DNA of 64,000 nt, from positions 5,420 to 69,419 of the forward strand of contig DATAVE010000160.1 of NCBI GenBank assembly GCA_036267875.1, given 5' to 3'. Shown here in pieces: positions 4,118-23,493 of the stretch. The stretch is from Mycobacteriales bacterium (GTDB taxonomy: Bacteria > Actinomycetota > Actinomycetes > JAFAQI01). Both the position numbers and the translations under genes were made by a program. The notes under the pieces were generated by a model that saw only the letters and a list, made by a program, of their open reading frames with translations, was not told where the DNA came from and did not search any database. Each line of letters begins with the position of its first letter. Within the stretch, counting starts at the first letter, position 1.

Positions 4118-4119
4118 GC

Positions 4120-6299: not shown

Positions 6300-6302
6300 C
6301 GG

Positions 6303-7396: not shown

Positions 7397-8914
7397 GTGG
7401 AGCTGAGACAGCGCCCGTCCCGTCGCGGTGGCCTCGCGGTCGCGGCGCTGTCCATCGCGCTGCTTGCCGGCTGTGGCAGCACCGTCGAGCCGTCGGCTGA
7501 GCGGACGATCGGCCCGATCCACGTCGGCATGGGTGCGCCGCCACAGGCCTCGACCACTCCGGTCACCGCTCCGTCTTCCGGCACGGCAGGCGGTCACCCG
7601 ACGTTGCCGTCCGTGACGTCGCCGGCTACGACCGGGGTGAGCACGGCTCCGGGTGTGACGACCACGCCCACCGGCACCCAGTCCACCCACGCGCCGGTGC
7701 AGACCGGGCCGATCACCGTCGGCTTCCTGACGACTGCGACGACGAACGCATCGCAGTACGGCGGATCGCTCGGCAATACGGTCAACGAGACGACGGTCGA
7801 CCAGGCGCTGATCAACGCGATCGACAAGCAGGGCGGTCTCGACGGCCGCCAGCTCAAGGTCATCTTCGCCCACACCGACACCGGCTCGACCAACTGGGAC
7901 AACGACTTCGAAGCGGCCTGCCAGACCTTCACCCAGGACCACCACGTCGATGTGGTGCTCGGCTACGAGTTCAACTACGAGCCCGACTTCGAGTCGTGTC
8001 TGGCCCAGCAGGGCATCCCGCACCTCGATGACGGCTTCAACGTCCCGAGCAGCGGCGAGCTCGCGAAGTACCCGCTGTTCTGGTCGCTGGATGTCCCGAC
8101 TATCGGACAGCGCTCGATCGAGAAGTTTCAGGGTGCGATCAACACGGGCTTTCTGACGTCCAAGAACAAGCTGGGGATTTTGCTCGACAGCTGCCCAGGC
8201 ACTCAGGATGCCTGGAACGGACAGGTGCTGCCGTTCCTGAAGTCCCACCACATCGACGTCGCCACGACCTTCACCGCTAGTTGCAACACCGGCAACAACG
8301 CAGGTGCGACCTCCGCAATCGGAAGCCTGACCAGTGGACTGCTGAAGTTCCGTAGTGCCGGGGTCGATCGCATCAGCTTCGTGGCGGTTTCCGAGGCACC
8401 GGTCCTCTACCTCGCGTCGGTCGCTGCGAACGCTCAGGGCTATCGGCCGGGCTGGATCGTCTCTTCGCTTGGTCAGCTGGCGATCATCGGTGGCGAGTCC
8501 CCGATGCCGCAAATGCAGAACACTCGCGGCTTCGGCTGGTTACCCAGCCAGGACGTTCCGCCCGCATACGCACCGAAGAAGAACGCAGCCCAGAGTCGCT
8601 GCATCTCGCTGCTCGCCTCGCAGAAGGTCTACCCGCGCTCGGCCGCTGACTACGGCTACGCCTACAACGCCTGCGAAGCCGTCTTCGTGTACGAGAAGGC
8701 ACTGAAGCTCGACGGCGGCAACTCCGATGGTCAGGCGATCAGCAACGCGATCGGAAATATCGGCAGCTTCCAGAGCACGTTGAACCTTGAAGGGAAGTCG
8801 GTGTTCTCGAGCGCTCGGCGCAACGACGCCCCGCAGGTCTACAAGCCGATCAACTGGGATGGCGGCTGTCACTGCTTCCGGTACGGCTCACAGACCTACC
8901 CGATGCCGTCGTGA
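7397..8914 (+). CDS. lipoprotein, LivK-like (type I periplasmic binding fold, HAAT family) substrate-binding protein A1
   Basis: Lipobox LLAGCGS, then a Thr/Pro-rich linker, then a PBP type-I domain (ITVGFLTTATTNASQYG...GGLDGRQLKVIFAHTDTG). C-terminal CHCFRYGSQ motif. Confidence 0.8.
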   Translation: MELRQRPSRRGGLAVAALSIALLAGCGSTVEPSAERTIGPIHVGMGAPPQASTTPVTAPSSGTAGGHPTLPSVTSPATTGVSTAPGVTTTPTGTQSTHAPVQTGPITVGFLTTATTNASQYGGSLGNTVNETTVDQALINAIDKQGGLDGRQLKVIFAHTDTGSTNWDNDFEAACQTFTQDHHVDVVLGYEFNYEPDFESCLAQQGIPHLDDGFNVPSSGELAKYPLFWSLDVPTIGQRSIEKFQGAINTGFLTSKNKLGILLDSCPGTQDAWNGQVLPFLKSHHIDVATTFTASCNTGNNAGATSAIGSLTSGLLKFRSAGVDRISFVAVSEAPVLYLASVAANAQGYRPGWIVSSLGQLAIIGGESPMPQMQNTRGFGWLPSQDVPPAYAPKKNAAQSRCISLLASQKVYPRSAADYGYAYNACEAVFVYEKALKLDGGNSDGQAISNAIGNIGSFQSTLNLEGKSVFSSARRNDAPQVYKPINWDGGCHCFRYGSQTYPMPS

Positions 8915-10485
8915 TGCGCACACGGTTGGTGTCGGCGACCGCGCTGGCGGCTGTCGCAGTTTTGGCCGGCTGCGGCAGCAGCGTCTCGTCGTCGCAGGCG
9001 ACGATCGGTCCCCTCAACGAAAGCCTCGGCGTACCTGGGTTCACAGTCGCGCCCGGAACGCCTGGTGCACCCATTGCAACGAGCCCCGCCACCGGCACGA
9101 CGGGGCCAGCGACGCCGACACAGTCCGCGTCACGTGGTCACGGCGCGACGTCGATCCCCACGTCCGTCGCATCGACCACAGAGATCCAGCCCAGCCAGTC
9201 TCTAGGTGGCGGTGCCACCTCGACTGCGCCGACACCGACCGGCGGGAGGACAACCTCGACGCCGGTGAAGGCGACCGGCCCGATCACGGTTGGCTTCCTT
9301 ACGACGGCGACAACCAACGCTGCTCAGTACGGCGCGTCGAACGGGAACACGGTCTCCGAGACCGGCATCGATGACGCGCTCGTCAATGCGCTCAACAAGC
9401 AGGGCGGGATCGACGGCCGGCAGCTCAAGGTCGTCTTCGCGCACACCGACACAGGCGGCAGCGACTGGGCGGGTGAGTTCCAGGCGGCCTGTTCGACGTT
9501 CACCCAGGACAACCACGTGGACGCGGTGCTGGGCTACGCGTTCGACTACGCGCCTGCGTTCGAGTCCTGCCTGGCCCAGAAGGGCATCCCGCACATCTCC
9601 GACTCCTACGCCGTCACGAGCCAAGCGGAGATGGCGAAGTATCCGCTGTACTGGTCGCTCGACACGCCGCCGATCGAGCAGCGCGAGATGGCGAAGTACG
9701 AGGGTGCCATCAAGACGGGCGTCCTTACACCCGCGAACAAGCTCGGCGTGATTCTCGACACCTGCGCGGGCAACCAGGCGGCATGGCAAGGCACGGTCCT
9801 GCCGTTCCTGCAGGCGCACCACATCAACGTTGCTCCGCCGTTCACCATTGCGTGTGGCACCGGCCAGAACGCCGGCATCGTCGCAACCGTCGGCTCGCTG
9901 ACGAACGTGTTGCTGCGGTTTCGTAGCGAGGGCGTCAACCGGATCAGCTTCGAGACGGCGGAGGGCCCGGCGCTGTTGCTCAGCAGCATCGAGGCGCAGA
10001 CGCAGGGCTATCACCCCGACTGGATCGTTTCCTCGCTCGCGGGACTTGCAGTGATCGGCGGCGAGACGCCGATCCCGCAGATGCAGAAGACCTACGGCTT
10101 CGGCTGGATACCGAGTGAAGACGTACCTCCGCAGTACGCGCCAGCCAAAGACGCGGCGCAGCTCCGGTGCCTCTCGTTGCTGCACTCGCAGAAGGAGTAT
10201 CCGAAGGCTGCTGCCGACTTCGTCTACGCCTACGACGCGTGCGAGGCGGTCTTCGTCTACGCCGATGCCCTCACGCACGACGGCGGAGACACGACCGGCA
10301 CGGCGGTGAGCCAGGCGATCGCATCGCTGGGCACGTCCTTCCAGAGCACGCTTAACCTCGGCGGCAAGTCGGACTTCTCGGCAGCGAGGCACAACGACGC
10401 TCCGATGGTCTACAAGCCGATCAACTGGGACGGCGACTGCCACTGCTTCCGCTATGGCTCGCAGACCTTCAAGATGCCGAGCTAG
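8911..10485 (+). CDS. lipoprotein, LivK-like substrate-binding protein A2 (tandem paralog)
   Basis: ATGA overlap with the upstream gene. Lipobox LAGCGSS, Thr/Pro linker, same PBP domain. C-terminal INWDGDCHCFRYGSQTFKMPS. Confidence 0.8.
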   Translation: MMRTRLVSATALAAVAVLAGCGSSVSSSQATIGPLNESLGVPGFTVAPGTPGAPIATSPATGTTGPATPTQSASRGHGATSIPTSVASTTEIQPSQSLGGGATSTAPTPTGGRTTSTPVKATGPITVGFLTTATTNAAQYGASNGNTVSETGIDDALVNALNKQGGIDGRQLKVVFAHTDTGGSDWAGEFQAACSTFTQDNHVDAVLGYAFDYAPAFESCLAQKGIPHISDSYAVTSQAEMAKYPLYWSLDTPPIEQREMAKYEGAIKTGVLTPANKLGVILDTCAGNQAAWQGTVLPFLQAHHINVAPPFTIACGTGQNAGIVATVGSLTNVLLRFRSEGVNRISFETAEGPALLLSSIEAQTQGYHPDWIVSSLAGLAVIGGETPIPQMQKTYGFGWIPSEDVPPQYAPAKDAAQLRCLSLLHSQKEYPKAAADFVYAYDACEAVFVYADALTHDGGDTTGTAVSQAIASLGTSFQSTLNLGGKSDFSAARHNDAPMVYKPINWDGDCHCFRYGSQTFKMPS

Positions 10486-10497: not shown

Positions 10498-11475
10498 ATG
10501 CCACGCAGCTACGGGGACCCGGACAAGCGAGGCCTGCCGCGGCACATGCGTCTCCTGTTCGGCGCGACCGAGGTGGCCCAGCGGTTCCACCTGGCTCCGT
10601 CCATGGAAGACGTGATCACCAAGCAGTCGCATGCGCAACGCCAGGTCGGCCACCCGGGATGGTGGATGACCTACCGGATCAACCCATCGGTCTCGACGTA
10701 CGAGGTCGCGATCGACAGCCGTGGCGGGCCGCTCGAGCTGCGGATCTACCGGCCGAGCAACGCCGGGCCTGAAGCGCCGATCGTCCTTTACATCCACGGC
10801 GGTGGATTCATGCTCGGCGGGCTCGAGGCGTGCGCCTGGATCTGCGGCGAGATCGCCGCGCAGACCGGCGCGGTGCTCGCCGCGGTCGAGTACCGGCTGG
10901 CTCCGGAGCACCCCTTCCCGGCCGGCCTCGACGACTGCCGCGACGCACTCGACTGGCTGGCGAAGGGGTCGCTGAGCGGCACCGATGCGAACCGCATCGC
11001 GGTTGCCGGTGACAGCGCGGGAGGCAACCTCAGCGCCGCGTTGTGCTTGGAGGCCCGGGACAGCGGCGGTCCGGCGATCGTCCACCAGACGCTGATCTAC
11101 CCGACGCTCGACTCGTCGCTGCGTGGCCAGTCGTGGGTTGACTGCGCAGGCGCCGGCGTCGACCGATCGGCCGGCGAGCAGATGTTCGAGGCGTACGCCG
11201 GTGCGGATCGAGAGAACCCGCTGGTGAGTCCGCTGCACTCGACCGATCTGTCCAACCTGCCGCCGGCGTTCATCGTCAACTCCGACTACGACGTGCTGCG
11301 CGACGACGGTTTTATGTACGCCGAGGCATTGCGTGCAGCGGGCGTCGAGGTGAGGCGCACCAACTACATCCGGGCACCCCACGGACTGCTGTCGATGCCC
11401 CGGCTTTTGCCGGTCGCCCGCCAGATGATCGCCGAGATCACCGGCGAGATCTCCCGCTACCTGCCGGTCGCCTGA
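10498..11475 (+). CDS. alpha/beta hydrolase, HSL-family esterase/lipase
   Basis: HGGGF oxyanion motif (LYIHGGGFMLGG) and GDSAGG nucleophile elbow. Confidence 0.8.
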   Translation: MPRSYGDPDKRGLPRHMRLLFGATEVAQRFHLAPSMEDVITKQSHAQRQVGHPGWWMTYRINPSVSTYEVAIDSRGGPLELRIYRPSNAGPEAPIVLYIHGGGFMLGGLEACAWICGEIAAQTGAVLAAVEYRLAPEHPFPAGLDDCRDALDWLAKGSLSGTDANRIAVAGDSAGGNLSAALCLEARDSGGPAIVHQTLIYPTLDSSLRGQSWVDCAGAGVDRSAGEQMFEAYAGADRENPLVSPLHSTDLSNLPPAFIVNSDYDVLRDDGFMYAEALRAAGVEVRRTNYIRAPHGLLSMPRLLPVARQMIAEITGEISRYLPVA

Positions 11476-11479
11476 ACCT

Positions 11480-12019
11480 ATGCAGCAGCGACGCGCCTTG
11501 CTTGCCCTGGCAGCGGGAGTGTCGCTTGCCCTGGGCGCGACGGGCTGCGCCACGAGCCTGCACGGCCTGGAGTTCCACAACGACAACCGGATGAAGATCG
11601 CCTCGCCGCATCAGAACCAGCTGGTGAGCGACCCCGTCACCCTGAGCTGGACCATGAAGGACTTCGCGGTTGCAGGTCTGGGCGATGGCCCAGTGCAGAA
11701 CGACACCGGATACTTCGCGGTCTTCATCGACCGCGCGCCGGTCAAGCCTGGGCAGACCCTTGCTTCCGTGAGCGAGAACACCCCGTCCTGCCAGCACACG
11801 ACGCTGTGTACGACGAAGTCGTATCTCGCCGGTGAGCAGGTCTACACGACAACCAAGGACGAAATCCGCCTCCCGCCGATCGCCGATCTGCTGAACAACC
11901 ACGAGTCCACGCAGTACCACCAGGCGACGGTGATCTTGATCAACACAGCAGGAGAGCGGATTAGCGAGAGTGCCTGGACGGTGGAGTTCCGGATGCACTC
12001 TTCCGGAGTGAACGACTGA
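11480..12019 (+). CDS. conserved lipoprotein of unknown function (paralog of 23525-24058)
   Basis: Lipobox LGATGCATS. The shared motif LSWTMKDF and its position immediately upstream of the MFS-LivF gene hold in both locus copies. Confidence 0.6.
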   Translation: MQQRRALLALAAGVSLALGATGCATSLHGLEFHNDNRMKIASPHQNQLVSDPVTLSWTMKDFAVAGLGDGPVQNDTGYFAVFIDRAPVKPGQTLASVSENTPSCQHTTLCTTKSYLAGEQVYTTTKDEIRLPPIADLLNNHESTQYHQATVILINTAGERISESAWTVEFRMHSSGVND

Positions 12020-14235
12020 TGGCCGCACGCAAGCAAGCCCCAGCGTCGGCGGCTGCCGCCGCGGATCGGGCTGCGGCGGAGATCGAGCAGACGAAGTCGA
12101 CGCTTCGCGAGCAGGCGCGCAGGACGCTGGGTGTCACAGGCGAGGACAGCACCGAAGCATTCAGGTTGCTGTTGCGGCGCAACCGCTTGTCGGTCTATCC
12201 GATCTTCGCCCTCGGGATGCTCTTCATCTGCGACGGTTTCCAGGGAACCGCGCTGGTCATCCTGTCGCCCAACGTCGCGGCCGCGCTGGGACTCGGCATT
12301 ACCGGGATCGGCGCGGCGCGGTCGATTGGGGCGTTTGCTGCGCTGGCATCGCCGATGCCGATGGCCGCACTGACTCAGCACAAGGCCCGACGGGCGGTGC
12401 TCTGTGTGATCACCGGGATCGCGTGGAGCTTCACGACGCTGTTCACCGGCTTCATCGTCTCCTCGCTCGGCCTGTTCGTGATCCTGGTCCTCGACGGGCT
12501 GAGCACGGGCACGGTGCTGGCACTGCATCCGCCGCTGATCATGGACAGCTACCACCCCTCGATGCGGGCGCGCGCCCTGTCGGCGTACTACGCGCTCGGT
12601 CAGTTCGGTGGCTTGGTCTGTCCGTTGCTCGTCGCGCTGCTGGCGGGCCCACTCAACCTCACCTGGCGTGGCGTCTTCCTCGTCCTCGGCCTCACCTCGC
12701 TGGCGATGTCGCTGCTGGCGGTGTTCCTGCGCGACCCGGGCTTCGGCAAGTGGGACACCGAGAAGCTCCGCGACAGTGTTCATGCCTCACACGGCGAGGG
12801 TGATCAGCTCGCCAAGGACGAGGTCGCGCTCGGCTTCTGGGAGATCGTGCGACGGGTCATGATGATCCCGACGATCAAACGCATCATGGCCTGCGCGGTC
12901 GTCCTCGGGATGTTGCTCATCCCGTTCCAGACCTACATCTCGTTCTTTCTGCTGCAGCGGTGGAACATGGACGCGAGCCACCGTGCGCTGTTCTTCGCCT
13001 ATGCCTCCGGCCTGACCATCATCGCGCTGATGATCTACGGCAGGATCGGAGAGCGGCAGTTCCGACGTACGCCGGCTCAGGTGCTTCGCGTGACGGCTTA
13101 CCTGCAGCTTGCGGGAATCGCCCTGCTGTTGTTCGGTGGGCTGTCGCCTTGGTTCGGCGGGATGCTCGCCGGCTTCGGGCTTGGCTCAGCCGTCGTCTAC
13201 ATCCTGTTTCCGGCAGTCACCCTCACGATCCTGTCGGTCGTTCCGGCGCACATGCGGGCGCACACCCAGTCGGTGTTCACGATCTTCGTCGGCTTGGGCA
13301 GTCTGCTCGGCGCGCTGCTGCTCGGCAACGTCGACGACCAGTACGGACCGACGGTGGCGATCGTCGTGATCGCTGCGGTGGGCTTCTTCGGAGCGGGACT
13401 GCTGGTGAGCGCCGCGAAGTTCGTCGTCGGGGACCTAGATCGGATGATCGACGACATCCTGGAAGAAGAGGAGATCAAGCGGATCACCGCCGCCGGCACT
13501 CACCTGCCGATGCTCGCGTGCCGCGGCATCGACTTCTCCTACGGCCAGCTCCAGGTCCTCTTCGGCGTCGACTTCACCGTCGACGACGGCGAGATGGTCG
13601 CGCTGCTCGGCACCAACGGCGCCGGCAAGTCGACGCTGTTGAAGGTCGTCTCCGGCATCGGAATCCCGAGCAAGGGCAGCGTCCGGTATCGCGGCCAGGA
13701 GATCACCTATCTCGATGCCGAGCGCCGACTTCGCCTCGGCATCACGCAGATCCCGGGCGGCCGCGCGGTGTTCGGACCGATGACGGTCCTGGAGAACCTG
13801 CGCAGCTACGGCTACAGCCTCGATGTCTCCCGGCGCGAGCTCAACCAGGCGATCGACTCCTGCTTCGAGGCATTCCCTCGGCTCCATGAGCGGCGGACGT
13901 CGCTTGCCGCCACGCTGTCCGGCGGCGAGCAGCAGATGCTCGGCCTGTCCAAGGCGTTGATGGTCAAGCCGAAGCTACTGGTCATCGACGAGCTCAGTCT
14001 CGGCCTGGCGCCGGTCATCGTCGGGCAGCTGCTCGAGATGGTGAAGCAGATCAACGCGGCAGGCACCGCCGTCGTGCTGGTCGAGCAGTCCGTGAACATC
14101 GCACTGAATCTCGTCGAGCACGCCTACTTCATGGAGAAGGGCGAGATGCGCTTCGACGGCAAGGCCGCCGACCTGCTCGCCCGTGACGATCTGCTGCGCG
14201 CAGTCTTCCTGCAAGGTGCGTCGGTGGCCGGATGA
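12019..14235 (+). CDS. fusion protein: N-terminal 12-TM MFS-like membrane domain plus C-terminal LivF-type ABC ATPase
   Basis: The first 470 aa show a 6+6 TM pattern with a central cytoplasmic loop. The C-terminus has Walker A GTNGAGKST, signature LSGGEQQMLGLSKAL and Walker B LLVIDELSLGLAP as in LivF. TGATG overlap with the upstream gene. Confidence 0.8.
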   Translation: MAARKQAPASAAAAADRAAAEIEQTKSTLREQARRTLGVTGEDSTEAFRLLLRRNRLSVYPIFALGMLFICDGFQGTALVILSPNVAAALGLGITGIGAARSIGAFAALASPMPMAALTQHKARRAVLCVITGIAWSFTTLFTGFIVSSLGLFVILVLDGLSTGTVLALHPPLIMDSYHPSMRARALSAYYALGQFGGLVCPLLVALLAGPLNLTWRGVFLVLGLTSLAMSLLAVFLRDPGFGKWDTEKLRDSVHASHGEGDQLAKDEVALGFWEIVRRVMMIPTIKRIMACAVVLGMLLIPFQTYISFFLLQRWNMDASHRALFFAYASGLTIIALMIYGRIGERQFRRTPAQVLRVTAYLQLAGIALLLFGGLSPWFGGMLAGFGLGSAVVYILFPAVTLTILSVVPAHMRAHTQSVFTIFVGLGSLLGALLLGNVDDQYGPTVAIVVIAAVGFFGAGLLVSAAKFVVGDLDRMIDDILEEEEIKRITAAGTHLPMLACRGIDFSYGQLQVLFGVDFTVDDGEMVALLGTNGAGKSTLLKVVSGIGIPSKGSVRYRGQEITYLDAERRLRLGITQIPGGRAVFGPMTVLENLRSYGYSLDVSRRELNQAIDSCFEAFPRLHERRTSLAATLSGGEQQMLGLSKALMVKPKLLVIDELSLGLAPVIVGQLLEMVKQINAAGTAVVLVEQSVNIALNLVEHAYFMEKGEMRFDGKAADLLARDDLLRAVFLQGASVAG

Positions 14236-17132
14236 AGTGGGGCCGCTGGGCGATCCGGGTCGCTGCGTTCGCTGCTGCGATTGCGGTGGCGAAGCTCGTG
14301 TTGGTCGAGTTGCACAAGCACGGACACCTCCAGACGTCCGCGACTCCGATGCAGGTCATCGTGCTGGGCGCGATGACCGGCATGACGTACGGGTTGCTCG
14401 GTGTTGGCCTGGTGCTGGTCTACCGAAGCAGCCGTGTCATCAACTTTGCGCACGGGAACATCGGCGCGTTCGGCGCCGCGCTGTTCGGTGTGATCGCCGT
14501 GAAGTGGCATGTGCCGTACTGGATTGCGTTCGTCCTGGCGATGGCGGTCTCGGGACTGGTCGGCGTCGGCACCGAGGCAGCAGCGGTACGCCGGCTTCGC
14601 AACGCGCCGTTGCTGATGAGCGTCGTCGTGACGCTCGGCATCGGGCAGTTCCTGGTCTTCTTCTCCCTCGTCATCAACTCGACGGCGGGTGCCGGCGCGA
14701 CGTACCCGAGCCCGCCGTTCATGCCTACGTTCCACGTGCAGTCGCTCTTCGTGACGCAGGCGTACTCGGGGATGCTGATCCTGTCGCCGATCGTCGTGGT
14801 CGGGCTGGCGGTCTTCCTGCGGGTGAGCAAGTTCGGGCTCGGGCTGCGTGCGGCGGCGGCCAACCAGGAAGCCGCGCGGATGGCCGGCATCTTTGCCGGC
14901 CGGATGTCGTCCCTCGCGTGGGCGATCGCCGGCGCGCTGTCGGCGTTCACAGCGATCCTCATCGCTCCGGCAGAGGGTTTCGTCAGCGGTGACTCGTTCG
15001 GGCCCGACCTGATCCTGCGGGCGATGACCGCGGCCGCGATTGGTCGGATGGACAACCTTCCGATCACGTTCTTCGCGGGTATCGGGCTTGGCGTCGTCGA
15101 GAACGTCCTGCTCTGGGACACCAGCAACTCAGACCTCGTCCAGATGGTGCTGTTCGTCGTCGTCCTCGGCGTGCTGCTGCTGCAGCGGCGGCGTGGCGGC
15201 AGAGGCGAGGAGAAGAGCAACTGGGCCTCGGTCCAGGCGCTGCGGCCACTGCCGGAGCAGCTTCGACGCCTGCCGTCGGTGCGGCTGCTCGGCCCTTTGG
15301 TCATGGTTGTCTTCTTCGGTGTGCTGGCGCTGGCGCCGCTCGCGATCGACAACAGTGGCTCGGTCACCCTCATCTACTTCATCGCGGTTGCGGTCGTCGG
15401 CTTGTCGATCAGCCTGCTGACCGGGCTCGGCGGTCAGCTCACGCTGGGACAGTTCATGGTTGCGGCGGTAGGCGCCGTCGTGTCCTTCCAGGTGTCCAGC
15501 CGGATCGGCGACTTCCCGCTGGCGCTGTTGTACGCCGGACTCGCCGCGGGCGTCGTATCGGTGCTGATCGGATTGCCGGCACTTCGGCTCCGCGGGCTGA
15601 TGCTGACGATCACGACGCTCGCATTCGCGCTCGCCGGGCCGTGGCTGCTCAGCAGGTCGTTTGCCTTGGGTGACGGGGTCAACCCCGGTGCGCCCATTGT
15701 CGATGGCCATCCGCTCGACAACGGCCACAACTACTACTACTTCGCGCTGGCCGTGTTCTTCATCTGCTTTGTCATCGCCTCGAACGTACGTCGCAGTGGT
15801 TTCGGCCGACTACTGATCGCGGTTCGCGACAACGAAGACAATGCCCGTGCGTTCGCGATCCGCGCGACGACCGCGAAGATGCAGGGCTATCTCATTGCCG
15901 GCTTCATCGCCGGCGTCGGCGGCGCGATCTACGCGCATTCGCGTACCGAGATCGACGGCTCGATCTTCGCGAGCAGGACGTCGATCGACGTTGTCGTCAT
16001 GTCGGTGCTGGGCGGCATCTCTTCGCTGGCCGGCCCGATCATCGGGTGCGCCTGGATCATCGGCATCCCCAAGATCCCGAATCTCGGCAACCTCGGGCTC
16101 GCGGCGACGTACTTCGGTGCCACGGCGATGATCCTTTGGCGACCGAACGGCCTCATCAGCTTCGTCGAGGCGCCGCGGCGCATCGTTGTCACCGCGCTCG
16201 CGCGGCTTCACGGCATCGACGGCAAGGCTGCGTTCGCCGACCAACGATCGGTCGCGGTCGTGGCGTCGACCGCCGTCGCAGCTGCCGCGATTCCCGCTCG
16301 TCCGGCCGCACCCGTCCCGCCGCAACGGCTTGCGGTGCGCCCGACGATCCTCGAGGCCCGCAGTCTGATGAAGCGCTTCGGCGGGGTGACGGCGGTCAAC
16401 GACGTGTCGTTCTCGGTCCTTGCTGGTGAGACGCTCGGTCTGATCGGCCCGAATGGCGCCGGCAAGACCACAACCTTCGAGCTGCTCGGAGGCTTCACCA
16501 AGCCCGACCGCGGATCGGTCACCTTCGAGCGGCGCGACGTGTCACACCTCGGGCCCGAGGGACGGGCGCGGCTCGGACTGATCCGATCGTTCCAGGACGC
16601 CGCGCTGTTCCCGACGATGACCGTCGAGGAGACCGTGGTTCTGGCTCAGGAGCGGATCAGCGGTACGTCGTTCATCGGGTCCGTGCTCGCCATCTCAGGT
16701 CGTAGCGAGCGGGCCAAGAAGGCGCGTGCTCGCGAGCTGATCGCGATGCTCGGCCTCGACGCCTATCGGGATCGACAGATCCGCGAACTGTCGACCGGCA
16801 CCAGGCGGATCAGCGAGATCGCGTGTCTGGTCGCACTCGAGCCGACCTGCCTACTGCTCGACGAGCCGTCCTCCGGCATCGCCCAACGCGAGACCGAGGC
16901 CCTCGGCGTTCTGCTCGACGATCTCAAGCGTCAGCTCGACCTGACACTGGTCGTGATCGAGCACGACATTCCACTGATCATGGGAATCTCCGACCGGATC
17001 GTCGCGATGGCCGACGGTGCCGTCATCGCCGAGGGGACGCCGGACGTCGTGCGCAACAACGCGATGGTGATCGACGCATACCTCGGCGGCAGCATCACCG
17101 CGATCGAGCGATCGGGGGTAGGTCGTGCGTAG
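14232..17132 (+). CDS. triple fusion LivH-like permease, LivM-like permease, LivG-like ABC ATPase (HAAT family)
   Basis: 966 aa. The N-terminus has LivH motifs (INFAHGNIGAFGA). The middle is a LivM-like 8-10 TM block, followed by an Ala/Pro linker. The C-terminal ATPase has [16 protein letters not shown] and LLLDEP. ATGA overlap with the upstream gene. Confidence 0.8.
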   Translation: MKWGRWAIRVAAFAAAIAVAKLVLVELHKHGHLQTSATPMQVIVLGAMTGMTYGLLGVGLVLVYRSSRVINFAHGNIGAFGAALFGVIAVKWHVPYWIAFVLAMAVSGLVGVGTEAAAVRRLRNAPLLMSVVVTLGIGQFLVFFSLVINSTAGAGATYPSPPFMPTFHVQSLFVTQAYSGMLILSPIVVVGLAVFLRVSKFGLGLRAAAANQEAARMAGIFAGRMSSLAWAIAGALSAFTAILIAPAEGFVSGDSFGPDLILRAMTAAAIGRMDNLPITFFAGIGLGVVENVLLWDTSNSDLVQMVLFVVVLGVLLLQRRRGGRGEEKSNWASVQALRPLPEQLRRLPSVRLLGPLVMVVFFGVLALAPLAIDNSGSVTLIYFIAVAVVGLSISLLTGLGGQLTLGQFMVAAVGAVVSFQVSSRIGDFPLALLYAGLAAGVVSVLIGLPALRLRGLMLTITTLAFALAGPWLLSRSFALGDGVNPGAPIVDGHPLDNGHNYYYFALAVFFICFVIASNVRRSGFGRLLIAVRDNEDNARAFAIRATTAKMQGYLIAGFIAGVGGAIYAHSRTEIDGSIFASRTSIDVVVMSVLGGISSLAGPIIGCAWIIGIPKIPNLGNLGLAATYFGATAMILWRPNGLISFVEAPRRIVVTALARLHGIDGKAAFADQRSVAVVASTAVAAAAIPARPAAPVPPQRLAVRPTILEARSLMKRFGGVTAVNDVSFSVLAGETLGLIGPNGAGKTTTFELLGGFTKPDRGSVTFERRDVSHLGPEGRARLGLIRSFQDAALFPTMTVEETVVLAQERISGTSFIGSVLAISGRSERAKKARARELIAMLGLDAYRDRQIRELSTGTRRISEIACLVALEPTCLLLDEPSSGIAQRETEALGVLLDDLKRQLDLTLVVIEHDIPLIMGISDRIVAMADGAVIAEGTPDVVRNNAMVIDAYLGGSITAIERSGVGRA

Positions 17133-18147
17133 CCGCCGGCTGGCGATCGCCGCGTGGGTGATGGCGTTCGGGTTTGGCGGCGTAGGCGCCGCGTCGGCGC
17201 TGCCGATTGCCGGGCACGTCAGGGTCGGCGCCCATCTCATCCGCGACAGCCGGGTCGGCGACCGCGCTGAGGCTTGGTACTCGACGCCGTCCGGCTCGCT
17301 CTGTATCCCACTGGTCGGCTGCCTGCCGCTTCCACTGCCGGTAGCGCTGCCACCGCCGTTGAGCTTCCCGGCTGGGACCCTGCATGTCGGCGTGACGCTG
17401 GGCGCTGAGTCTGCGCGCGCCTACGTCGTACCCGACCTGCCTTCCGACGTAGCGTCGCTGCCGCCAACCGGGGTGCTGATCCTGCCGGTCGACAACAGTC
17501 CGCTCGCCGGGACGTTGGACCTCGGGTCGTCGCGGATCAAGGCGTGCCTGACCACCGGGCGAGCGCCGACGCAGCCGACCGCCAAAGCGGCCAGCGCCGG
17601 CTCACCGCCGTCCGTCGATTGCACAGTGTCGACGCCGGCGAGGTACGACGCGGCGATCAAGGCGTTCCGGGTCGACCTCACGCCGTTCCTCGCAAAGTGG
17701 CAACACGGCCGAGCCGACCATGGGATCGCGCTGCTGCCTGGCTTGGCAGGCGCCAGCCGGCTGGCCGAGTGGCAGGTCGCTTTCGACGGCAGGGGATCGA
17801 CCTCGCCGACGGTCTACTCGCTGCTCGCCAACGCCGGGTCGGGCCGGCCGCCGACAACGCCGACCCCGACTCCGAGCTCCCCGCCATCGATTGCGGCCAG
17901 TCCACCTACGATCACCGTCCCGCTACCTGGCGTGAGCGGCGTCGAGCCGCCAGTCGCGCCACCCGCGATCGCGCCGTCGGCGCAAGCTGAGGTCTACCTG
18001 GTCCGCCCTACGGGCTTCCGCTATCCGGCGATCTTCATCGCCCCGCTGGCGATCCTCGCCGGCGTCGTCTTCTTCGGCCGGTTGTTCACCGGCTCGAGTG
18101 TTCGACCACGCAGAACGAGAATGGGAGCTGAGAGCAGCGATGGCTGA
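17125..18147 (+). CDS. secreted Pro/Thr-rich protein with a C-terminal TM anchor (paralog of 19445-20464)
   Basis: Signal peptide, a conserved AEAWYSTP...C..L..C block, a Pro-rich linker and a C-terminal hydrophobic helix. GTG start overlaps the LivHMG stop by 8 nt. Confidence 0.55.
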   Translation: MRSRRLAIAAWVMAFGFGGVGAASALPIAGHVRVGAHLIRDSRVGDRAEAWYSTPSGSLCIPLVGCLPLPLPVALPPPLSFPAGTLHVGVTLGAESARAYVVPDLPSDVASLPPTGVLILPVDNSPLAGTLDLGSSRIKACLTTGRAPTQPTAKAASAGSPPSVDCTVSTPARYDAAIKAFRVDLTPFLAKWQHGRADHGIALLPGLAGASRLAEWQVAFDGRGSTSPTVYSLLANAGSGRPPTTPTPTPSSPPSIAASPPTITVPLPGVSGVEPPVAPPAIAPSAQAEVYLVRPTGFRYPAIFIAPLAILAGVVFFGRLFTGSSVRPRRTRMGAESSDG

Positions 18148-18469
18148 TCTAGGTACTGAGCGTCGGCAGCCGTGGCTGCGAGCGATCACCGATCCGGCAT
18201 CGACCCTGCCCGTCTACCTGGGCGTGGTGGTCGCGGCTGTCGGGTTCGTGCTGCTCGTCATCGGCTGGTCCGACGTCGCGGGGACGGTCGACGTCGGACG
18301 GCAGATGCCGTACCTGATGTCGACCGGACTGCCGGGCATCGCGCTGGTGATGGTCGGACTGGTTGTGGTGAACATCAGCATTCGGCGTCAGGACAGCGCC
18401 GAGCGCGCCCGGCAGATGAGCGCGCTGACCGAGACGCTCGACAAGCTGCGGGCGTCGGACTCGAAGTGA
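18140..18469 (+). CDS. small 2-TM membrane protein (GW-motif family), member 1
   Basis: 109 aa with two hydrophobic helices (VVAAVGFVLLVIGWS; LPGIALVMVGLVVV) followed by an RRQD charged tail. 8-nt overlap with the upstream gene. Paralogous to 19161-19448. Confidence 0.5.
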   Translation: MADLGTERRQPWLRAITDPASTLPVYLGVVVAAVGFVLLVIGWSDVAGTVDVGRQMPYLMSTGLPGIALVMVGLVVVNISIRRQDSAERARQMSALTETLDKLRASDSK

Positions 18470-18741
18470 GTCGGCTGCGCGCGGTTGCGGTGCTGGCGGC
18501 GATCTTCGTCGTCGGCTTCGTGGCGTTCGGCTGGGCTTGGCACGGCGCCCGCCACGCGACGTACGTTCCGCTGCAGGCGCCGTGGGTGATCTCGGGAGGA
18601 CTGGGCGCGATCGCGCTGGTCGGGCTCGCGATCGCCGCGTGGCACATCGACCTCGCGCGCCGCGACGACATCAAGCATCGCTCCGATTGGGATGACTTCA
18701 CCCAGGACCTCAGCGAGGCACTGGCCGAGCGCCAGACCTGA
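18466..18741 (+). CDS. small 2-TM membrane protein, member 2
   Basis: GTG start overlapping the upstream stop. Same architecture (TM-GW-loop-TM-RRDD tail). Paralogous to 18796-19164. Confidence 0.45.
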   Translation: MSRLRAVAVLAAIFVVGFVAFGWAWHGARHATYVPLQAPWVISGGLGAIALVGLAIAAWHIDLARRDDIKHRSDWDDFTQDLSEALAERQT

Positions 18742-18765
18742 TCGGCGGTGCTAGTAGGCGCCTTC

Positions 18766-18775
18766 CCAGATCTGG
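18766..18775. repeat. perfect 10-bp palindrome CCAGATCTGG on the symmetry axis between the convergent locus copies
   Basis: Read directly from the sequence. Lies in the 54-nt gap between the stops at 18741 (+) and 18796 (-). Confidence 0.5.
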
Positions 18776-18795
18776 CGTCCGCCGTTGGCGAGATG

Positions 18796-19164
18796 CTACT
18801 TCTTTCTGGTGCGCGCCGGCTTGGCCGGTATGGCGAGCTGCGCGACGGCCGATCGAAGCTCGCGGGCGAAGCCGGCAAGCTCGTGCACATGCCGCGCCTC
18901 TTCGCGGCGGCTCAGATGCGCCGACAGCGCCGCGGCCGAAAGCCCAGCAAGAGCCAGTCCGCCGATCCCGCCGGAGATCAGCCACGGCAGCTCGCTCGCG
19001 ACATCCCGGGTGTGGTCATCCCCGACGTAGCCGGCGATCATCAGGCCGAACCCGGCAAGGACCAGCAGGGTGAGGATCACCGTCGCACGAACGCCCGGGT
19101 CGAGCAGGCTGGCCACCCAACGGGGCAGCGTCAGCGTGACCTGCTCGCGTCCCTTGTCAGTCAT
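18796..19164 (-). CDS. small 2-TM membrane protein, member 2' (copy B)
   Basis: Start MTDKGREQVTL; helices ILTLLVLAGFGLMIAGY and ISGGIGGLALAGLSAAAL. ATGA overlap with the upstream gene. Confidence 0.45.
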   Translation of the reverse strand: MTDKGREQVTLTLPRWVASLLDPGVRATVILTLLVLAGFGLMIAGYVGDDHTRDVASELPWLISGGIGGLALAGLSAAALSAHLSRREEARHVHELAGFARELRSAVAQLAIPAKPARTRKK

Positions 19165-19448
19165 CGACTCTCGATCGAGGACCGGAGGTCGTGCAGCGCG
19201 TCGGTCAGGGCCGCCATCTCGCGCGAACGCTTGGCGCCGTCCTGTCGGCGGGCGGCGACGTTGATGACGACCAACCCGACCATGACCAGTCCGATGCCGG
19301 GAAGGCCCGCGGACAGGACGTAGGGAACCTGCTGCCAGGAGTTGGGCTTGCCCGCGGCTTCTGACCAGCCGATGAGGATCAGCGCGAACCCGGCGAGGGC
19401 CAGCACGATGCCGACGTACGTCGGGATCCGGGACTCTGGCTCCGTCAT
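19161..19448 (-). CDS. small 2-TM membrane protein, member 1' (copy B)
   Basis: Start MTEPESRIPTYVGIVLALAGFALILIGWSE; its ATG overlaps the stop of the upstream gene. About 60% identical to 18140-18469. Confidence 0.5.
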   Translation of the reverse strand: MTEPESRIPTYVGIVLALAGFALILIGWSEAAGKPNSWQQVPYVLSAGLPGIGLVMVGLVVINVAARRQDGAKRSREMAALTDALHDLRSSIESR

Positions 19449-20464
19449 GACTGGTGTCTCCTTGGTGTGGCATCGGATGTGAAGACTCGTACGAAGAAGA
19501 CCGCGCCGAGCAACATCAGCAGCGGCACGATGAACACGACGGGATAGCGGAAGCCGCGGCCGACCGTGGTCGGGTAGGCGACCTCGGTCTGCGGTGCGAT
19601 CTCGGGCGCACCGGCGGGCGGCACCTCGACTGTGGTGGTGCCCGGCAAGGTAACGCCCGGAATCGCTGGGGCCACCGTCGCGCCTGACGGCGTCGGCATC
19701 GGCACGATGGGCGTGCTGCCGCCCGGGCTCACCGATGCGCTGGTCGTGATCAGTGAGTGGATTCTCGTCGTCGGTGTTGCCGTCGTGTGGGCCGCGAAAG
19801 TGACCAGCCACGTCGAGGTCAGGGACTTGTCTGCAGTGCTTGGGCTGGGGATCAAGGCGATCCCGTCGCGCGGGCGACCGATCTCCCATCCCCGCAGGAA
19901 CGGCGTGAGATCGAGGGTGAAGGCGTTGTGCTTCGCGTCGTACTTCAGCGGTGCGTTGACGAAGCAGTCAGTCTTCGGAAGCGCGCCGGTGCCTCCAGAC
20001 GGTGCGTCCGGAAACTTCTGAGTCACCGCGCAAGCCTCGATCTTCGCTGTCGCCGGCGAGATGGTGCCCGCCGTGGGACTGGTGTCGATCGGCAGGACCA
20101 TCTGGCCGTGCGCGTCCGTGCCCTTGTGCACCGCGCTCAGGTCAGGCAGCACATAGGCGCGCTCGGATTCCTGGCCGAGGATGTTGCCGACCCGGATCGA
20201 GTTCAGCGGGGCGAGCGAGAGCAGCTTCGAGACGATCGCGCCGAGCTGCGGGCACAGCGGGATCGACGCGCACTTCGGGATCGGCAACGTGGTGTACCAG
20301 GTCTCGGCCACGTCGGGCACGCCGTTCGTCGAGGCGGGCGGCTGCGCGACGGAAGTGGCGTGGAAAGGGTTGGCACCGATCGACATCGCGGCGGCCGGGG
20401 TCAACGGCAATACGGCGACGCCGACCGCGACTGTGGCGACCGCGATACGTGCGAGGCGGGTCAT
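19445..20464 (-). CDS. secreted Pro/Thr-rich protein with a C-terminal TM anchor (copy B)
   Basis: Start MTRLARIAVATVAVGV overlaps the SBP stop (ATGA). Shares the AETWYTTLP...C..LC block and a C-terminal anchor FIVPLLMLLGAVFFV. Confidence 0.55.
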   Translation of the reverse strand: MTRLARIAVATVAVGVAVLPLTPAAAMSIGANPFHATSVAQPPASTNGVPDVAETWYTTLPIPKCASIPLCPQLGAIVSKLLSLAPLNSIRVGNILGQESERAYVLPDLSAVHKGTDAHGQMVLPIDTSPTAGTISPATAKIEACAVTQKFPDAPSGGTGALPKTDCFVNAPLKYDAKHNAFTLDLTPFLRGWEIGRPRDGIALIPSPSTADKSLTSTWLVTFAAHTTATPTTRIHSLITTSASVSPGGSTPIVPMPTPSGATVAPAIPGVTLPGTTTVEVPPAGAPEIAPQTEVAYPTTVGRGFRYPVVFIVPLLMLLGAVFFVRVFTSDATPRRHQS

Positions 20465-21972
20465 CCGATCGCCTGCTCGCCGGAGGTGTACTGGAAACAC
20501 TTGCAACCTGAGGAGTAGGCACCCATGCGGATGGCGTCGACCCCGTCTGAGCGGTTGGCGGTGTCGACCCCGAACGTCTGATCGGAGTGGTAGGACGAAC
20601 CGACTGAATGTGTCGCGGCGACGAAGGTGCTGCGGGTGAGCGCCTGGCCGGCCGGAATCGCCGCGACGACCGCGTCGAGATAGTCGAACTCATCGCAGAT
20701 CTGGATCGTTCCGGCCTTCTCGTTGGCGGTCGTGATCGGTTGGCCGTGGGTGTGCATGTAGGACAGGCAGGCATTGCCGCCGGGGCGGATGCTGCTCGTA
20801 TCTGCGACATCCTGCGCGGGGATCCAGCCGACGAACTCCGCTCCCGCCAGCTCCCGCGCGGAGATGTTCGAGGCGAGGTCACCCAAGGGCTCGTCACTGG
20901 AAAGGGCGTACTTCGGGTAGTAGCCCTGCGGACCTGCCTCGAGGCCGAAGCCGGCCGAAAGAAAGCCGTTGTTCTCGACGAACATCAGGTTGGTGATGCC
21001 CTCGGAGCGGAAGCGCAGGTCCGCGCCCTCCATCTGCGTGAGCAGCGCGGTGAGGTCACCGGTCGAGGCGACGTAGTGCAGCGCGATCTTGTCCTGAACA
21101 TCGATGTGGCGGGCCCGAAGCTCCGCTTCCAGGACCTTCTCGCCGGCGACGTACGGCGCCGTCTCGTAGTAGAGGATTCCGACCTTCGCGCCCGGTTGGA
21201 ACCAATGGGCTGCCACCAGTCGAGGAACCTCGATCTTCGCGAGCCGATCGAGGCTGATCGAGTTCGGGAAGACGGCTCCGGACAGCGACGCCAGGTCGCT
21301 GTCGGTGTATCCGGTGACGTTGGCGTTGACGATCCCGGCGACGCCACCGCTTAGTGCGCAGCGCAGGAAGTTGTCGGTCATCCCGAAGTCGAACACGACC
21401 TGTACCGGGTGGTCCTGCGTGAACTCGTCGCAGGCGCCCTGCTCGTACGTCGACTGCGAGGTGTTCGGGTTGATGTCGTAGAAGTAGGGCTTGATCGGGT
21501 GGCCGGACAGCCCGCCGGCCTTGTTGATCTTTGCGATCTCCAGGTCAGCGACCGCGCGCCCGTCCGCGGAAGCGAGGCCCTTGCCGATCCCGCTGAGGAC
21601 CGTCGAGCTGGCGGCGGCGTCGAGGTATGGGAACCCGATCGTGATCGGGGTGTGCGCGCTGACGGCCGGTCCGGTCGGCGTTGCCGAGCTAGCGCGCGTG
21701 GGTGAGCTGCCGGCCGCGATGGTCGTTGTGGCGCCTTGGGCGGGCAGCACATTGATCGAAGGGCCTGCACTGGAACCGGCGACGCTCGGAGTGCCCGTCG
21801 TGCTTGCACCGCTGGTTGGCACAGCGACCGTCGTGGGAGTTCCGCCGGCCGTGATCGTCTGGACCTGAGCGTCCTGGGTGCCGACAGCACGGGGCTCGAG
21901 GGTGGACCCGCAGGCGACCAGGGAGAGCATCACGATCGTGCCTACCGCGGCTCGGTGAAGCGAGTGACTCAT
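20461..21972 (-). CDS. lipoprotein, LivK-like substrate-binding protein B1
   Basis: Start MSHSLHR...LSLVACGS overlaps the upstream stop (ATGA). Thr-rich linker, PBP type-I domain with the FTQDH motif. C-terminal CKCFQYTSG. Confidence 0.8.
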   Translation of the reverse strand: MSHSLHRAAVGTIVMLSLVACGSTLEPRAVGTQDAQVQTITAGGTPTTVAVPTSGASTTGTPSVAGSSAGPSINVLPAQGATTTIAAGSSPTRASSATPTGPAVSAHTPITIGFPYLDAAASSTVLSGIGKGLASADGRAVADLEIAKINKAGGLSGHPIKPYFYDINPNTSQSTYEQGACDEFTQDHPVQVVFDFGMTDNFLRCALSGGVAGIVNANVTGYTDSDLASLSGAVFPNSISLDRLAKIEVPRLVAAHWFQPGAKVGILYYETAPYVAGEKVLEAELRARHIDVQDKIALHYVASTGDLTALLTQMEGADLRFRSEGITNLMFVENNGFLSAGFGLEAGPQGYYPKYALSSDEPLGDLASNISARELAGAEFVGWIPAQDVADTSSIRPGGNACLSYMHTHGQPITTANEKAGTIQICDEFDYLDAVVAAIPAGQALTRSTFVAATHSVGSSYHSDQTFGVDTANRSDGVDAIRMGAYSSGCKCFQYTSGEQAIG

Positions 21973-23462
21973 CCGATCGGCTGCGGACCGGAGGTGTACT
22001 TGAAGCACTTGCAGCCTTCGTCGTACGCACCCATCCGAATCGCATCGGCTCCGTCGGAGCGGCTCGAGGTGTTGACGCTCAGCGCGTTGTCCGACTTGAA
22101 CGACGACCCGACAGCGTGGGTCGCCGCGACGAAGGTGCTGCGGGTGAGCGCCTGACCGGCAGGGATCTTCGCGACGACGGCTGCCAGGTAGTCGAACTGC
22201 TCGCAGATCGCGATCGAGCCCGCAATCTCGTTCGGGGTCGACATCGGCTGCCCATGCTGGTGCATGTAGGTCATGCAGGCCTTGCCGCCAGCCGGGATGT
22301 CACTCGTGTCGGGGACATCCTCGGACGGCACCCATCCCACGAACTGGGCGCCCTCGAGCTCGCGGGCGGAGACGTTCGCGTCGACGTTGCCGAGCGGCTC
22401 GTCGCTGGTGAACGCGTACTTCGGGTAGTAGCCCTGAGGTCCCGCCTCCAGCCCGAAGAAGCCCGACAGGAAGGCGTTGGTCTCGACGAACATCATGTTG
22501 GTCACGCCCTCGGTGCGAAAGCGCAGATCTGCACCCTGTGCCTGGGTCAGCAGCGTGGTGAGGTCGCTCGTCGACGCGACCGGGTGCATCGCGATCCGGT
22601 CCTTCACTGCGATGTGGTTGGCGGCGAGGTCGGACTCCAGGTCCTTCTCCGCGGTGATGTACGGCGCGGACTCCTCGTAGAGGATGCCGATCTTGGCGCC
22701 GGGCTGGAACCAGTGCGTCGCGACGAGGCGCTGCACCTCGATCTTGGCGAGCCGGTCCAGGCTGATGCCATCCGGGTAGACCAACCCCGGCAGCGAGGCC
22801 AGGTCGGCCGAGGTGAGCCCAGGCACGCCTGTGTCGATGATTCCGGCGATGCCTCCTGACAACGCACACCGCTGGAAGTTGAGACTCATCCCCGGATCCA
22901 TGTCGATCTGGACCGGGTGGTCCTGGGTGAACTGGTCGCAGGTGCCCTGCTCGTAGGTCGCCTGAGGGGTGTTCGGGTTGATGTCGTAGAAGTACGGCTT
23001 GATCGGATGCCCGCTCAGGCCGCCAGCCTTGTTGATCCGCGTTATCTCGAGCTCGGTGACCTTCAAGGTGTCCGCTGAAGCCAGACCCTTGCCGATCCCG
23101 CTGAGGACGGATGAGCTCGTCGCCGCGTCGATGTAGGGAATGCCGACGGTGATCGGCGTGTGGTCACTCACTGTTGGGGCGCTCGATGTCGAGCCGCCGG
23201 TCGTCGGCTCGCCGCTGGTCGCGATCGTGGGCGTCGCGCCATCGGTAGGGAGTACGTCGACCGACGACGGGGTCGTGCCAGGCGCTGAGGTGGTCGTGAC
23301 GACCGATGGCCCAGTGGCGCTCGTCGGCGTGCCGGCGCCCTGGATCACCTGCACTTGCGAGCCGGATGTGGCGACACCACGAGGCTCGAGTGTGGAGCCG
23401 CAGGCCGCTAGCGAAAGGGCCGCGACCGCGACGAAGACCGGGCCCATTAACCGCCGCGACAT
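21969..23462 (-). CDS. lipoprotein, LivK-like substrate-binding protein B2
   Basis: Preferred start MSRRLMGPVFVAVAALSLAACGS; an alternative GTG lies 24 nt upstream. Same domain. C-terminal CKCFKYTSGPQPIG. Confidence 0.8.
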   Translation of the reverse strand: MSRRLMGPVFVAVAALSLAACGSTLEPRGVATSGSQVQVIQGAGTPTSATGPSVVTTTSAPGTTPSSVDVLPTDGATPTIATSGEPTTGGSTSSAPTVSDHTPITVGIPYIDAATSSSVLSGIGKGLASADTLKVTELEITRINKAGGLSGHPIKPYFYDINPNTPQATYEQGTCDQFTQDHPVQIDMDPGMSLNFQRCALSGGIAGIIDTGVPGLTSADLASLPGLVYPDGISLDRLAKIEVQRLVATHWFQPGAKIGILYEESAPYITAEKDLESDLAANHIAVKDRIAMHPVASTSDLTTLLTQAQGADLRFRTEGVTNMMFVETNAFLSGFFGLEAGPQGYYPKYAFTSDEPLGNVDANVSARELEGAQFVGWVPSEDVPDTSDIPAGGKACMTYMHQHGQPMSTPNEIAGSIAICEQFDYLAAVVAKIPAGQALTRSTFVAATHAVGSSFKSDNALSVNTSSRSDGADAIRMGAYDEGCKCFKYTSGPQPIG

Positions 23463-23477
23463 TGGTTGATAATCCCC

Positions 23478-23493
23478 CTGTAGCACTCTACAG
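23478..23493. promoter_or_regulatory. palindrome CTGTAG-N4-CTACAG in the divergent promoter region of copy B
   Basis: Perfect 6-bp arms in the 63-nt gap between divergent starts 23462 (-) and 23525 (+). Confidence 0.35.

Follow-up and report, generated by a model that had tools for sequence, protein, structure and literature searches.

Can both membrane subunits and an ATPase of an amino-acid-type ATP-binding cassette (ABC) importer be carried on one uninterrupted polypeptide, and what would such a protein transport? The question is raised by a 64,000-nucleotide stretch of Mycobacteriales DNA (contig DATAVE010000160.1; hereafter the window, to which all coordinates refer), in which two genes, G1 and G2, each read as a fusion of the permeases LivH and LivM with the ATPase LivG. 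Both genes encode a genuine single-chain fusion of LivH-like, LivM-like and LivG-like parts. At a likelihood that we put at roughly three in four, each makes up the complete membrane channel, together with one ATPase of the pair, in a HAAT-lineage importer (Transporter Classification, TC, 3.A.1.4) that depends on binding proteins and most likely takes up hydrophobic organic acids, esters or amides. Complex formation, import direction and substrate class are the parts of this reading that reach beyond direct observation, and they are argued below from domain content, gene neighbourhood and predicted structure.

Two single-chain LivH-LivM-LivG fusions

G1 is a single open reading frame (ORF) free of internal stop codons over its full length. 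Mapping of domain boundaries with hidden Markov models places the Pfam families in the order that a preliminary description of this DNA had predicted for both copies: BPD_transp_2 (PF02653) at residues 43-312 (E-value 1.7e-28, full profile) and again at residues 380-612 (1.3e-26), followed by ABC_tran at residues 722-880. The LivG-specific tail BCA_ABC_TP_C (PF12399) is found in addition, at residues 931-953. Two BPD_transp_2 domains and a LivG-type ATPase with a BCA_ABC_TP_C extension at its C-terminus are both hallmarks of the HAAT family. G2 contains the same four Pfam domains, and the two proteins share 62% identity across 953 residues. GC content by codon position is uniform along the fusion, with third positions (GC3) at 0.86-0.87.

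Both genes are packed tightly against their neighbours. The ATG of G1 and the TGA of the gene upstream (F1, which encodes a major facilitator superfamily (MFS) domain fused to a LivF ATPase) share an ATGA overlap, and the stop of G2 overlaps the ATG of an esterase gene (P) on its 3' side. Two start codons are candidates for G2, namely GTG 26234, which lies 5 nt past the stop of its own upstream gene (F2), and GTG 26243, which is the start called by JGI for a metagenome protein (P0082) that is 100% identical to G2 from residue 4. An automatic ORF list opens G2 at a TTG within the upstream gene, which was not taken as a plausible start.

The fused chain runs from a LivH-like domain of ten modelled helices through a charged, presumably cytoplasmic connector, a LivM-like domain of ten modelled helices and a disordered tether to a LivG-type ATPase (Table 1). 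Conservation along this chain was assessed in an alignment of 88 homologous sequences, which also served for the AlphaFold2 model. The connector between the permeases has a length of 36 residues in all 88 aligned homologues (88/88), is well conserved in sequence and, in G1, carries 9 Lys and Arg in 34 residues. By the positive-inside rule, this Lys/Arg-rich segment would place both ends of each permease half in the cytoplasm, so that a tandem fusion with a C-terminal ATPase could arise without topological adjustment, as in the natural permease fusion FhuB. The tether that leads into the ATPase, by comparison, measures 32-78 residues in the aligned homologues and shows no sequence conservation. 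An Ala/Pro-rich linker between LivM and LivG had been described for the fusion; this is borne out in G1, where residues 666-704 are 51% Ala and Pro compared with 18% for the whole protein, but the corresponding linker of G2 reaches only 31%.

Residues associated with ATP hydrolysis and its coupling to transport are retained. The G1 ATPase has Walker A, Walker B with its Glu, a signature motif (LSTGTRR) and an H-loop (IEHD), each at least 90% conserved in the alignment. Its best NCBIfam match is LivG (214.5 bits, against an equivalog cut-off of 362), and its relatives in the PDB are the LivG-like 4wbs, 6hs3 and 1g9x, and also LptB. The cytoplasmic (coupling) helix of the LivH-like half, at residues 200-217, bears the conserved motif RAAAANPEAARM, and the coupling helix of the LivM-like half, at residues 523-541, likewise bears a conserved motif.

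The same architecture recurs widely. A word-indexed search of 5.8 billion proteins recovered at least 120 full-length homologues (950-1060 aa, 58-92% identity) from many independent contigs and from isolate genomes, including those of Kribbella, Nonomuraea, Actinomadura and Actinocrispum. When 185,579 species were scanned, each through a single genome, 244 stretches encoding a relative came to light; the best 80 loci all belong to Actinomycetota, and several genomes carry two or three paralogues. An exhaustive HMMER search was also made of 1.84 billion representatives of 50%-identity clusters, and among the best 150 clusters 109 align to query residues ~40-960 in one stretch, across both junctions, at 32-56% identity. 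The fusion had been called unusual; these counts, together with named entries in RefSeq and UniProt, show that it is instead frequent in Actinomycetota.

These homologues also bear on whether the long ORF is what it seems, since it might conceal three proteins made from internal starts, or owe its length to a sequencing or assembly error that removed stop codons. With at least 120 independent full-length homologues, chance or assembly error is excluded, and the uninterrupted frame is common to the two window paralogues and to those contigs and isolate genomes. The one feature that speaks for internal translation is a weak start candidate in G1, an in-frame ATG at codon 713, just within the ATPase domain, preceded by a 4-nt Shine-Dalgarno-like motif; this candidate is lacking from G2. 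At the permease-permease junction neither copy has an in-frame start with a Shine-Dalgarno-like motif, and no such start is common to both copies at any junction. A search for promoter-like sites in 11000-19500 likewise found none, and the unvarying length and conserved sequence of the connector peptide also speak against separate translation. Judged from these sequence features, namely the fixed-length conserved connector, the lack of a shared internal start and the uninterrupted homologues, a frameshift artefact and three separately translated genes both appear very unlikely.

Fold of the membrane domain

The AlphaFold2 model of G1 has a mean predicted local distance difference test (pLDDT) score of 82.5 and a predicted template modelling (pTM) score of 0.84 (the predicted models have pTM values of 0.84 and 0.86). 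Its confidence is low only at the core of the connector (residues 322-326), the tether (673-700) and the C-terminal tip (961-966). Each permease half is modelled as five transmembrane (TM) helices, a short beta hairpin, TM6, a cytoplasmic coupling helix and four more helices, which makes a membrane domain of 10+10 helices. The membrane part (14232-16259) matched nothing in the PDB by phmmer or with a family profile up to an E-value of 10, and a structure search with the full G1 model returned matches to ATPase domains only. For the membrane part, the closest solved folds are the type II permease HmuU (4g1u_B, score 14.2), FhuB (7lb8_B, 12.7, with 445 aligned residues and so both halves), the type II-like (ABC-3) permease PsaC (7kyp_B, 12.3) and the type II permease HI1471 (2nq2_B, 12.1).

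A review of ABC transporters counts 5-6 helices per domain in type I importers and 10-12 in type II importers (PMC5807212). Set against these figures, the 10+10 modelled helices leave unsupported the type I label that had been attached to the fusion. The BPD_transp_1-type fold of MalFGK2, ModBC and MetNI, with ~5-6 helices per domain, is not seen, and the predicted model has the 10-helix BtuC-like fold of BtuCD, HmuUV and FhuCDB. In two other respects the proteins differ from classical type II systems: Pfam assigns the permeases to BPD_transp_2 and not to FecCD, and the associated binding proteins are LivJ-like and not of cluster A (BtuF-like). The model thus suggests a membrane domain that is type II-like, not type I.

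Among solved structures the closest analogue is FhuB of the Escherichia coli ferrichrome importer FhuCDB (7lb8), which is likewise a natural permease-permease fusion. Unlike G1, FhuB carries no ATPase in its own chain and is served by a FhuC homodimer; its family is FecCD, its binding protein is of cluster A, and sequence identity is 13%.

Partner proteins, proposed mechanism and probable substrate class

In both loci, the gene directly upstream of the fusion encodes the MFS-LivF protein that had been proposed as its partner, and the two are translationally coupled. F1 and F2 share 60% identity. Their C-terminal domain constitutes the LivF-type second ATPase expected of a HAAT system, here fused to MFS_1; LivF is its best NCBIfam match (193.7 bits for F1, against a cut-off of 441), and it has an LSGGEQQ signature and a VEQ H-loop, the latter typical of E. 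coli LivF. Walker A, Walker B with Glu and signature motifs are kept in the ATPase domains of both types. The MFS domain is complete, with 12 helices, and its sole solved relative is the organic-anion (anion:cation) symporter DgoT, matched over all 12 helices at an E-value of 1.8e-4. To gauge how constant these associations are, the window proteins were compared with the best 80 genome loci (81 for some components), and an MFS-LivF homologue is adjacent to and upstream of the fusion gene in 76 of the 80.

Each window locus also encodes two binding lipoproteins (B and C; L and M), which are long, very divergent and equipped with a Pro/Thr-rich stalk. A profile of their family, of which L is a member, matches only HAAT-family binding proteins in the PDB (4gnr at an E-value of 2.7e-9, 4q6w, 4mpt, 4n03, 3h5l and 4obb). 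A relative in Kribbella passes the Pfam gathering score for Peripla_BP_6 (32.4 versus 31.7 bits), and one in Actinocrispum has a Peripla_BP_6 match on record. The LivJ-like (Peripla_BP_6, cluster B) binding protein characteristic of HAAT importers is therefore present at the level of the family profile, the window copies alone being sub-threshold. Lipoproteins of 440-520 aa lie within 10 kb of the fusion in ~50 of 81 loci.

The fusion is thus part of a conserved operon that comprises a small lipoprotein, MFS-LivF, LivHMG, an optional anchored protein and two small proteins with two TM helices (2-TM proteins), plus the divergent HAAT-type binding lipoproteins. Both window loci carry the full module. 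Locus 1 reads B-C-D-E1-F1-G1-H-a1-b1 on the forward strand, and in locus 2 M-L-K-a2-b2 on the reverse strand diverges from E2-F2-G2-P on the forward strand; most gene junctions are overlaps of 1 to 8 nt. A homologue of the small lipoprotein E lies upstream of MFS-LivF in 60 of the 66 loci with room for it. Two Cys residues never vary in this family, nor do certain Asp, His and Glu positions. The optional proteins, H and K, combine a signal peptide, a Pro/Thr-rich stalk and a C-terminal anchor, and a homologue follows the fusion on the same strand in 34 of 80 loci. Of the 2-TM proteins, an 'a' homologue is found downstream of the fusion and in its orientation in 49 of the 74 loci that leave room for one, with 'b' directly after it in 35; an overall count places an a/b pair behind the fusion in ~50 of 81 related loci. 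Profile searches of Pfam and the PDB yielded no relative of E or of H/K, and Pfam produced only noise for the four 2-TM proteins. None of these four is annotated in the window; the counterpart of a1 is called as a gene in an orthologous locus from a metagenome-assembled genome (MAG). The esterases D and P were considered as core components, but with D found in just 8 and P in just 13 of 81 loci this was rejected; LipL is the best NCBIfam match of P, below its cut-off.

The preliminary description had envisaged a whole transporter built from just two polypeptides. Given the conservation of the lipoproteins, E, a/b and H/K with the fusion, this holds for the channel and ATPase core but not for the system, as binding and small proteins co-occur in the same operons.

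Table 1. Coordinates of the fusion genes, their parts and the other genes of the two transporter loci in the window.
Feature	Coordinates	Strand	Description
G1, LivH-LivM-LivG fusion	14232..17132	+	966 aa; single ORF; Pfam, AlphaFold and homologues
G1, LivH-like permease domain	14358..15167	+	Pfam residues 43-312; 10-helix half ~residues 1-317
G1, permease-permease connector	15183..15287	+	residues 318-352; Arg/Lys-rich, predicted cytoplasmic
G1, LivM-like permease domain	15288..16247	+	residues 353-672; Pfam 380-612
G1, Ala/Pro-rich flexible tether	16248..16343	+	residues 673-704; pLDDT <50 for 673-700
G1, LivG-type nucleotide-binding domain	16344..17111	+	residues 705-960; NCBIfam, Pfam and motifs
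G2, second LivH-LivM-LivG fusion	26234..29146	+	970 aa; 967 aa if GTG 26243 is the start
F1, MFS-LivF fusion, partner ATPase subunit	12019..14235	+	738 aa; MFS_1 68-432, ABC_tran 516-658
F2, second MFS-LivF fusion	24055..26229	+	724 aa; Pfam and NCBIfam results as for F1
B, divergent HAAT-type substrate-binding lipoprotein	7397..8914	+	505 aa; lipobox; 59% identical to C
C, second binding lipoprotein of locus 1	8911..10485	+	524 aa; profile comparison
L, binding lipoprotein of locus 2	20461..22008	-	likely start ATG 21972; 27% identity to C, 67% to M
M, binding lipoprotein of locus 2	21969..23486	-	505 aa; lipoprotein-family profile
E1, conserved small lipoprotein	11480..12019	+	179 aa; lipobox LGATGC
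E2, paralogue of E1	23525..24058	+	177 aa; 41% identity to E1 (E-value 4e-51); stop overlaps F2 start
H, secreted protein with C-terminal membrane anchor	17125..18147	+	340 aa; overlaps G1 stop by 8 nt
K, paralogue of H in locus 2	19445..20506	-	likely start ATG 20464; 40% identical to H
a1, small 2-TM membrane protein	18140..18469	+	109 aa; 55% identical to a2
b1, small 2-TM membrane protein	18454..18741	+	~95 aa, start uncertain; 34% identity to b2, ~29% to a1
a2, small 2-TM protein of locus 2	19161..19448	-	95 aa; ATG overlaps K stop
b2, small 2-TM protein of locus 2	18796..19164	-	122 aa; ATG overlaps a2 stop
D, cytoplasmic Abhydrolase_3 esterase, accessory	10498..11475	+	Pfam E-value 2.5e-62; 8/81 loci
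P, beta-lactamase-family serine hydrolase, accessory	29143..30405	+	Pfam E-value 6e-46; 13/81 loci

From this gene content a mechanism can be proposed. Substrate would first be bound on the outer side of the membrane by the pair of divergent HAAT-type lipoproteins that each locus encodes, and a LivH/LivM pseudo-heterodimer formed within one chain would provide the transport path. The tethered LivG domain would pair with the LivF-type second ATPase, supplied by the translationally coupled MFS fusion gene upstream, so that binding and hydrolysis of ATP switch LivH/LivM between outward-facing and inward-facing states. The fusion itself would fix a 1:1:1 stoichiometry and the co-insertion of its three parts.

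Database names would make this an ordinary Leu/Ile/Val (LIV-I type) importer whose subunits merely happen to be fused. In NCBIfam the two ATPases match LivG and LivF best, the Pfam assignments correspond to the branched-chain amino-acid system, and an aminotransferase, a dipeptidase and a proline-racemase-like gene are found near the systems of Kribbella and Actinocrispum. However, both ATPases score far under the equivalog cut-offs that mark orthology to LivG and LivF proper and would imply Leu/Ile/Val specificity, the window copies of the binding lipoproteins have diverged too far for Pfam to recognise, and several paralogous systems occur per genome. The fusion in the window and its 79%-identical orthologous locus lie, moreover, amid genes for an acyl-CoA (coenzyme A) ligase, cytoplasmic esterases, TetR regulators and the β-oxidation-type enzymes acyl-CoA dehydrogenase, MaoC hydratase and thiolase. 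In a study of Rhodopseudomonas palustris (PMC3223731), most COG0683 binding proteins annotated for branched-chain amino acids bound aromatic, fatty or dicarboxylic acids, and one such cluster adjoins the pim beta-oxidation operon; proteins annotated in this way often bind other ligands. An ordinary LIV-I importer is accordingly held to be unlikely. The missed cut-offs, the divergent binding proteins and the acid-catabolism neighbours indicate that the substrate is probably not Leu, Ile or Val. Uptake of a hydrophobic organic acid, ester or amide, which would be hydrolysed or CoA-activated in the cytoplasm, is the most likely function, and is proposed with moderate confidence.

A more radical departure would be that the MFS domain is the real path, for uptake or efflux of organic anions, with the ABC part regulating or energising it, or that a lipid-like molecule is exported or flipped, in either case without a binding-protein-dependent importer. 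Such a role would fit an MFS domain that is full-length, always fused to a LivF ATPase in this clade and related among solved structures only to DgoT, and it would give a setting to the conserved membrane and surface proteins E, a, b and H/K, which are foreign to known HAAT importers. It is nonetheless distinctly unlikely: HAAT-type lipoproteins accompany the fusion in the majority of loci counted above and share its operons in the window, and the cytoplasmic coupling helix is preserved in each permease half, as are the catalytic motifs in the two ATPases. To our knowledge, all characterised BPD_transp_2 systems (TC 3.A.1.4 and 3.A.1.2) are importers. A further proposal, bolder in what it asks of the accessory genes, is that LivHMG contributes one half to a hybrid ABC-MFS machine, obligate and particular to Actinomycetota, in which the MFS domain is a second translocation or sensing path coupled to ATP hydrolysis and E, the 2-TM proteins and H/K are true subunits. 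We regard it as speculative and, on balance, doubtful.

Several observations count against a HAAT-lineage importer with the proposed substrate, which remains our preferred reading. The window's own binding lipoproteins reach no Pfam threshold (the nearest is Peripla_BP_5, at an E-value of 0.015), and the MFS domain, E, the two 2-TM proteins and H/K are not accounted for by the importer model. The usual partners of solved type II-like permeases come from cluster A and are not LivJ-like, and these systems therefore offer no basis for deducing how the binding proteins dock. Accessory enzymes vary between lineages: the neighbours in Kribbella and Actinocrispum are two beta-lactamase-family hydrolases, an M19 dipeptidase, an amidohydrolase and an aminotransferase. 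The substrate class is consequently only weakly constrained, and paralogues probably differ in substrate. Literature searches found no paper that describes or tests a LivH-LivM-LivG or MFS-LivF fusion.

On either side of the two loci, still within the window (2801-7298 and 30484-38536), lies a lipid- or acid-catabolism set made up of a beta-lactamase-family hydrolase, TetR regulators, an acyl-CoA ligase, a LacI regulator, an acyl-CoA dehydrogenase, a MaoC hydratase, a thiolase, a second Abhydrolase_3 esterase and a methyl-accepting chemotaxis protein. In the orthologous locus of a Mycobacteriales MAG (L083, 79% identical), TetR, acyl-CoA dehydrogenase, MaoC and thiolase genes come directly after gene b, and the second transporter locus (18796-30405) therefore represents an extra block of ~11.6 kb relative to that genome. 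A search of the window with Rfam found no RNA element.

Related systems and significance

The nearest known systems are E. coli LIV-I (LivJ/LivK-LivH-LivM-LivG-LivF) and relatives such as Pseudomonas BraCDEFG and cyanobacterial UrtABCDE, of the HAAT family (TC 3.A.1.4). The window system has all four of their core domains, likewise ordered H-M-G, and LivJ-like binding proteins as well. The window system departs from LIV-I in joining three core subunits in one chain and in having a LivF with an N-terminal MFS domain. It also differs in its divergent, long and stalked lipoproteins, in the extra genes E, a, b and H/K, and in falling short of the equivalog cut-offs. For the substrate class alone, a possible parallel is R. 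palustris RPA3723-3725, beside pimFABCDE. This importer of the branched-chain amino-acid type, with several paralogous binding proteins, lies next to acyl-CoA ligase and beta-oxidation genes, and its binding proteins bind fatty and dicarboxylic acids (PMC3223731). It is proteobacterial, and the part of that article drawn on here mentions neither subunit fusion nor an MFS domain.

Entries with the same H-M-G fusion are already present in public databases, among them WP_132117635.1 (UniProt A0A4R2JRW5) of Actinocrispum wychmicini, with 61% identity to G1, and WP_351762094.1 of Streptomyces mirabilis, with 41%. Their RefSeq and UniProt names are generic and automatic, such as 'ABC transporter permease subunit'. 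Larger versions also occur. Among the representative clusters, thirty with lengths of 1190-1420 aa cover the region that G1 spans, and Pfam finds two permease and two ATPase domains per chain in P0152, P0157 and P0167 (1274-1571 aa), two of which fall within the 1190-1420 aa class while the other has 1571 aa. P0135 and P0141 (~1650-1750 aa) have 700-800 further C-terminal residues without a Pfam match. In a subset of LivHMG homologues (P0008-P0014, P0017, P0018 and others) the chain continues beyond the ATPase into a further, C-terminal helix-hairpin-helix domain (PF12826, PF14520, PF00633; alignment columns ~1040-1100); this module, of a DNA-binding type that is odd on a transporter, is absent from the window copies.

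Domain fusion is commonplace in ABC transporters, and the LivH-LivM-LivG fusion is an architectural variant, catalogued but uncharacterised, within a transporter family that is already known; it does not amount to a new kind of system. More surprising than the fusion itself are its constant MFS-ATPase partner and the accessory proteins, which lie outside the coordinates of G1. Should the ABC-MFS hybrid prove real, it would be a multi-component uptake system without a characterised counterpart.

The single-chain form, with its fixed stoichiometry, could suit electron cryo-microscopy and biochemistry, as HAAT membrane domains matched no structure in the PDB copy searched, by sequence or profile. 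The fold result suggests that in these 'amino-acid type' importers a LivJ-like binding protein serves a membrane domain of type II-like fold, a combination that merits mechanistic study. The MFS-ATPase partnership and the small conserved proteins point to an unstudied uptake module in soil Actinomycetota. This module probably imports plant- or lipid-derived acids, esters or amides, and the branched-chain amino-acid label that it carries rests on weak grounds.

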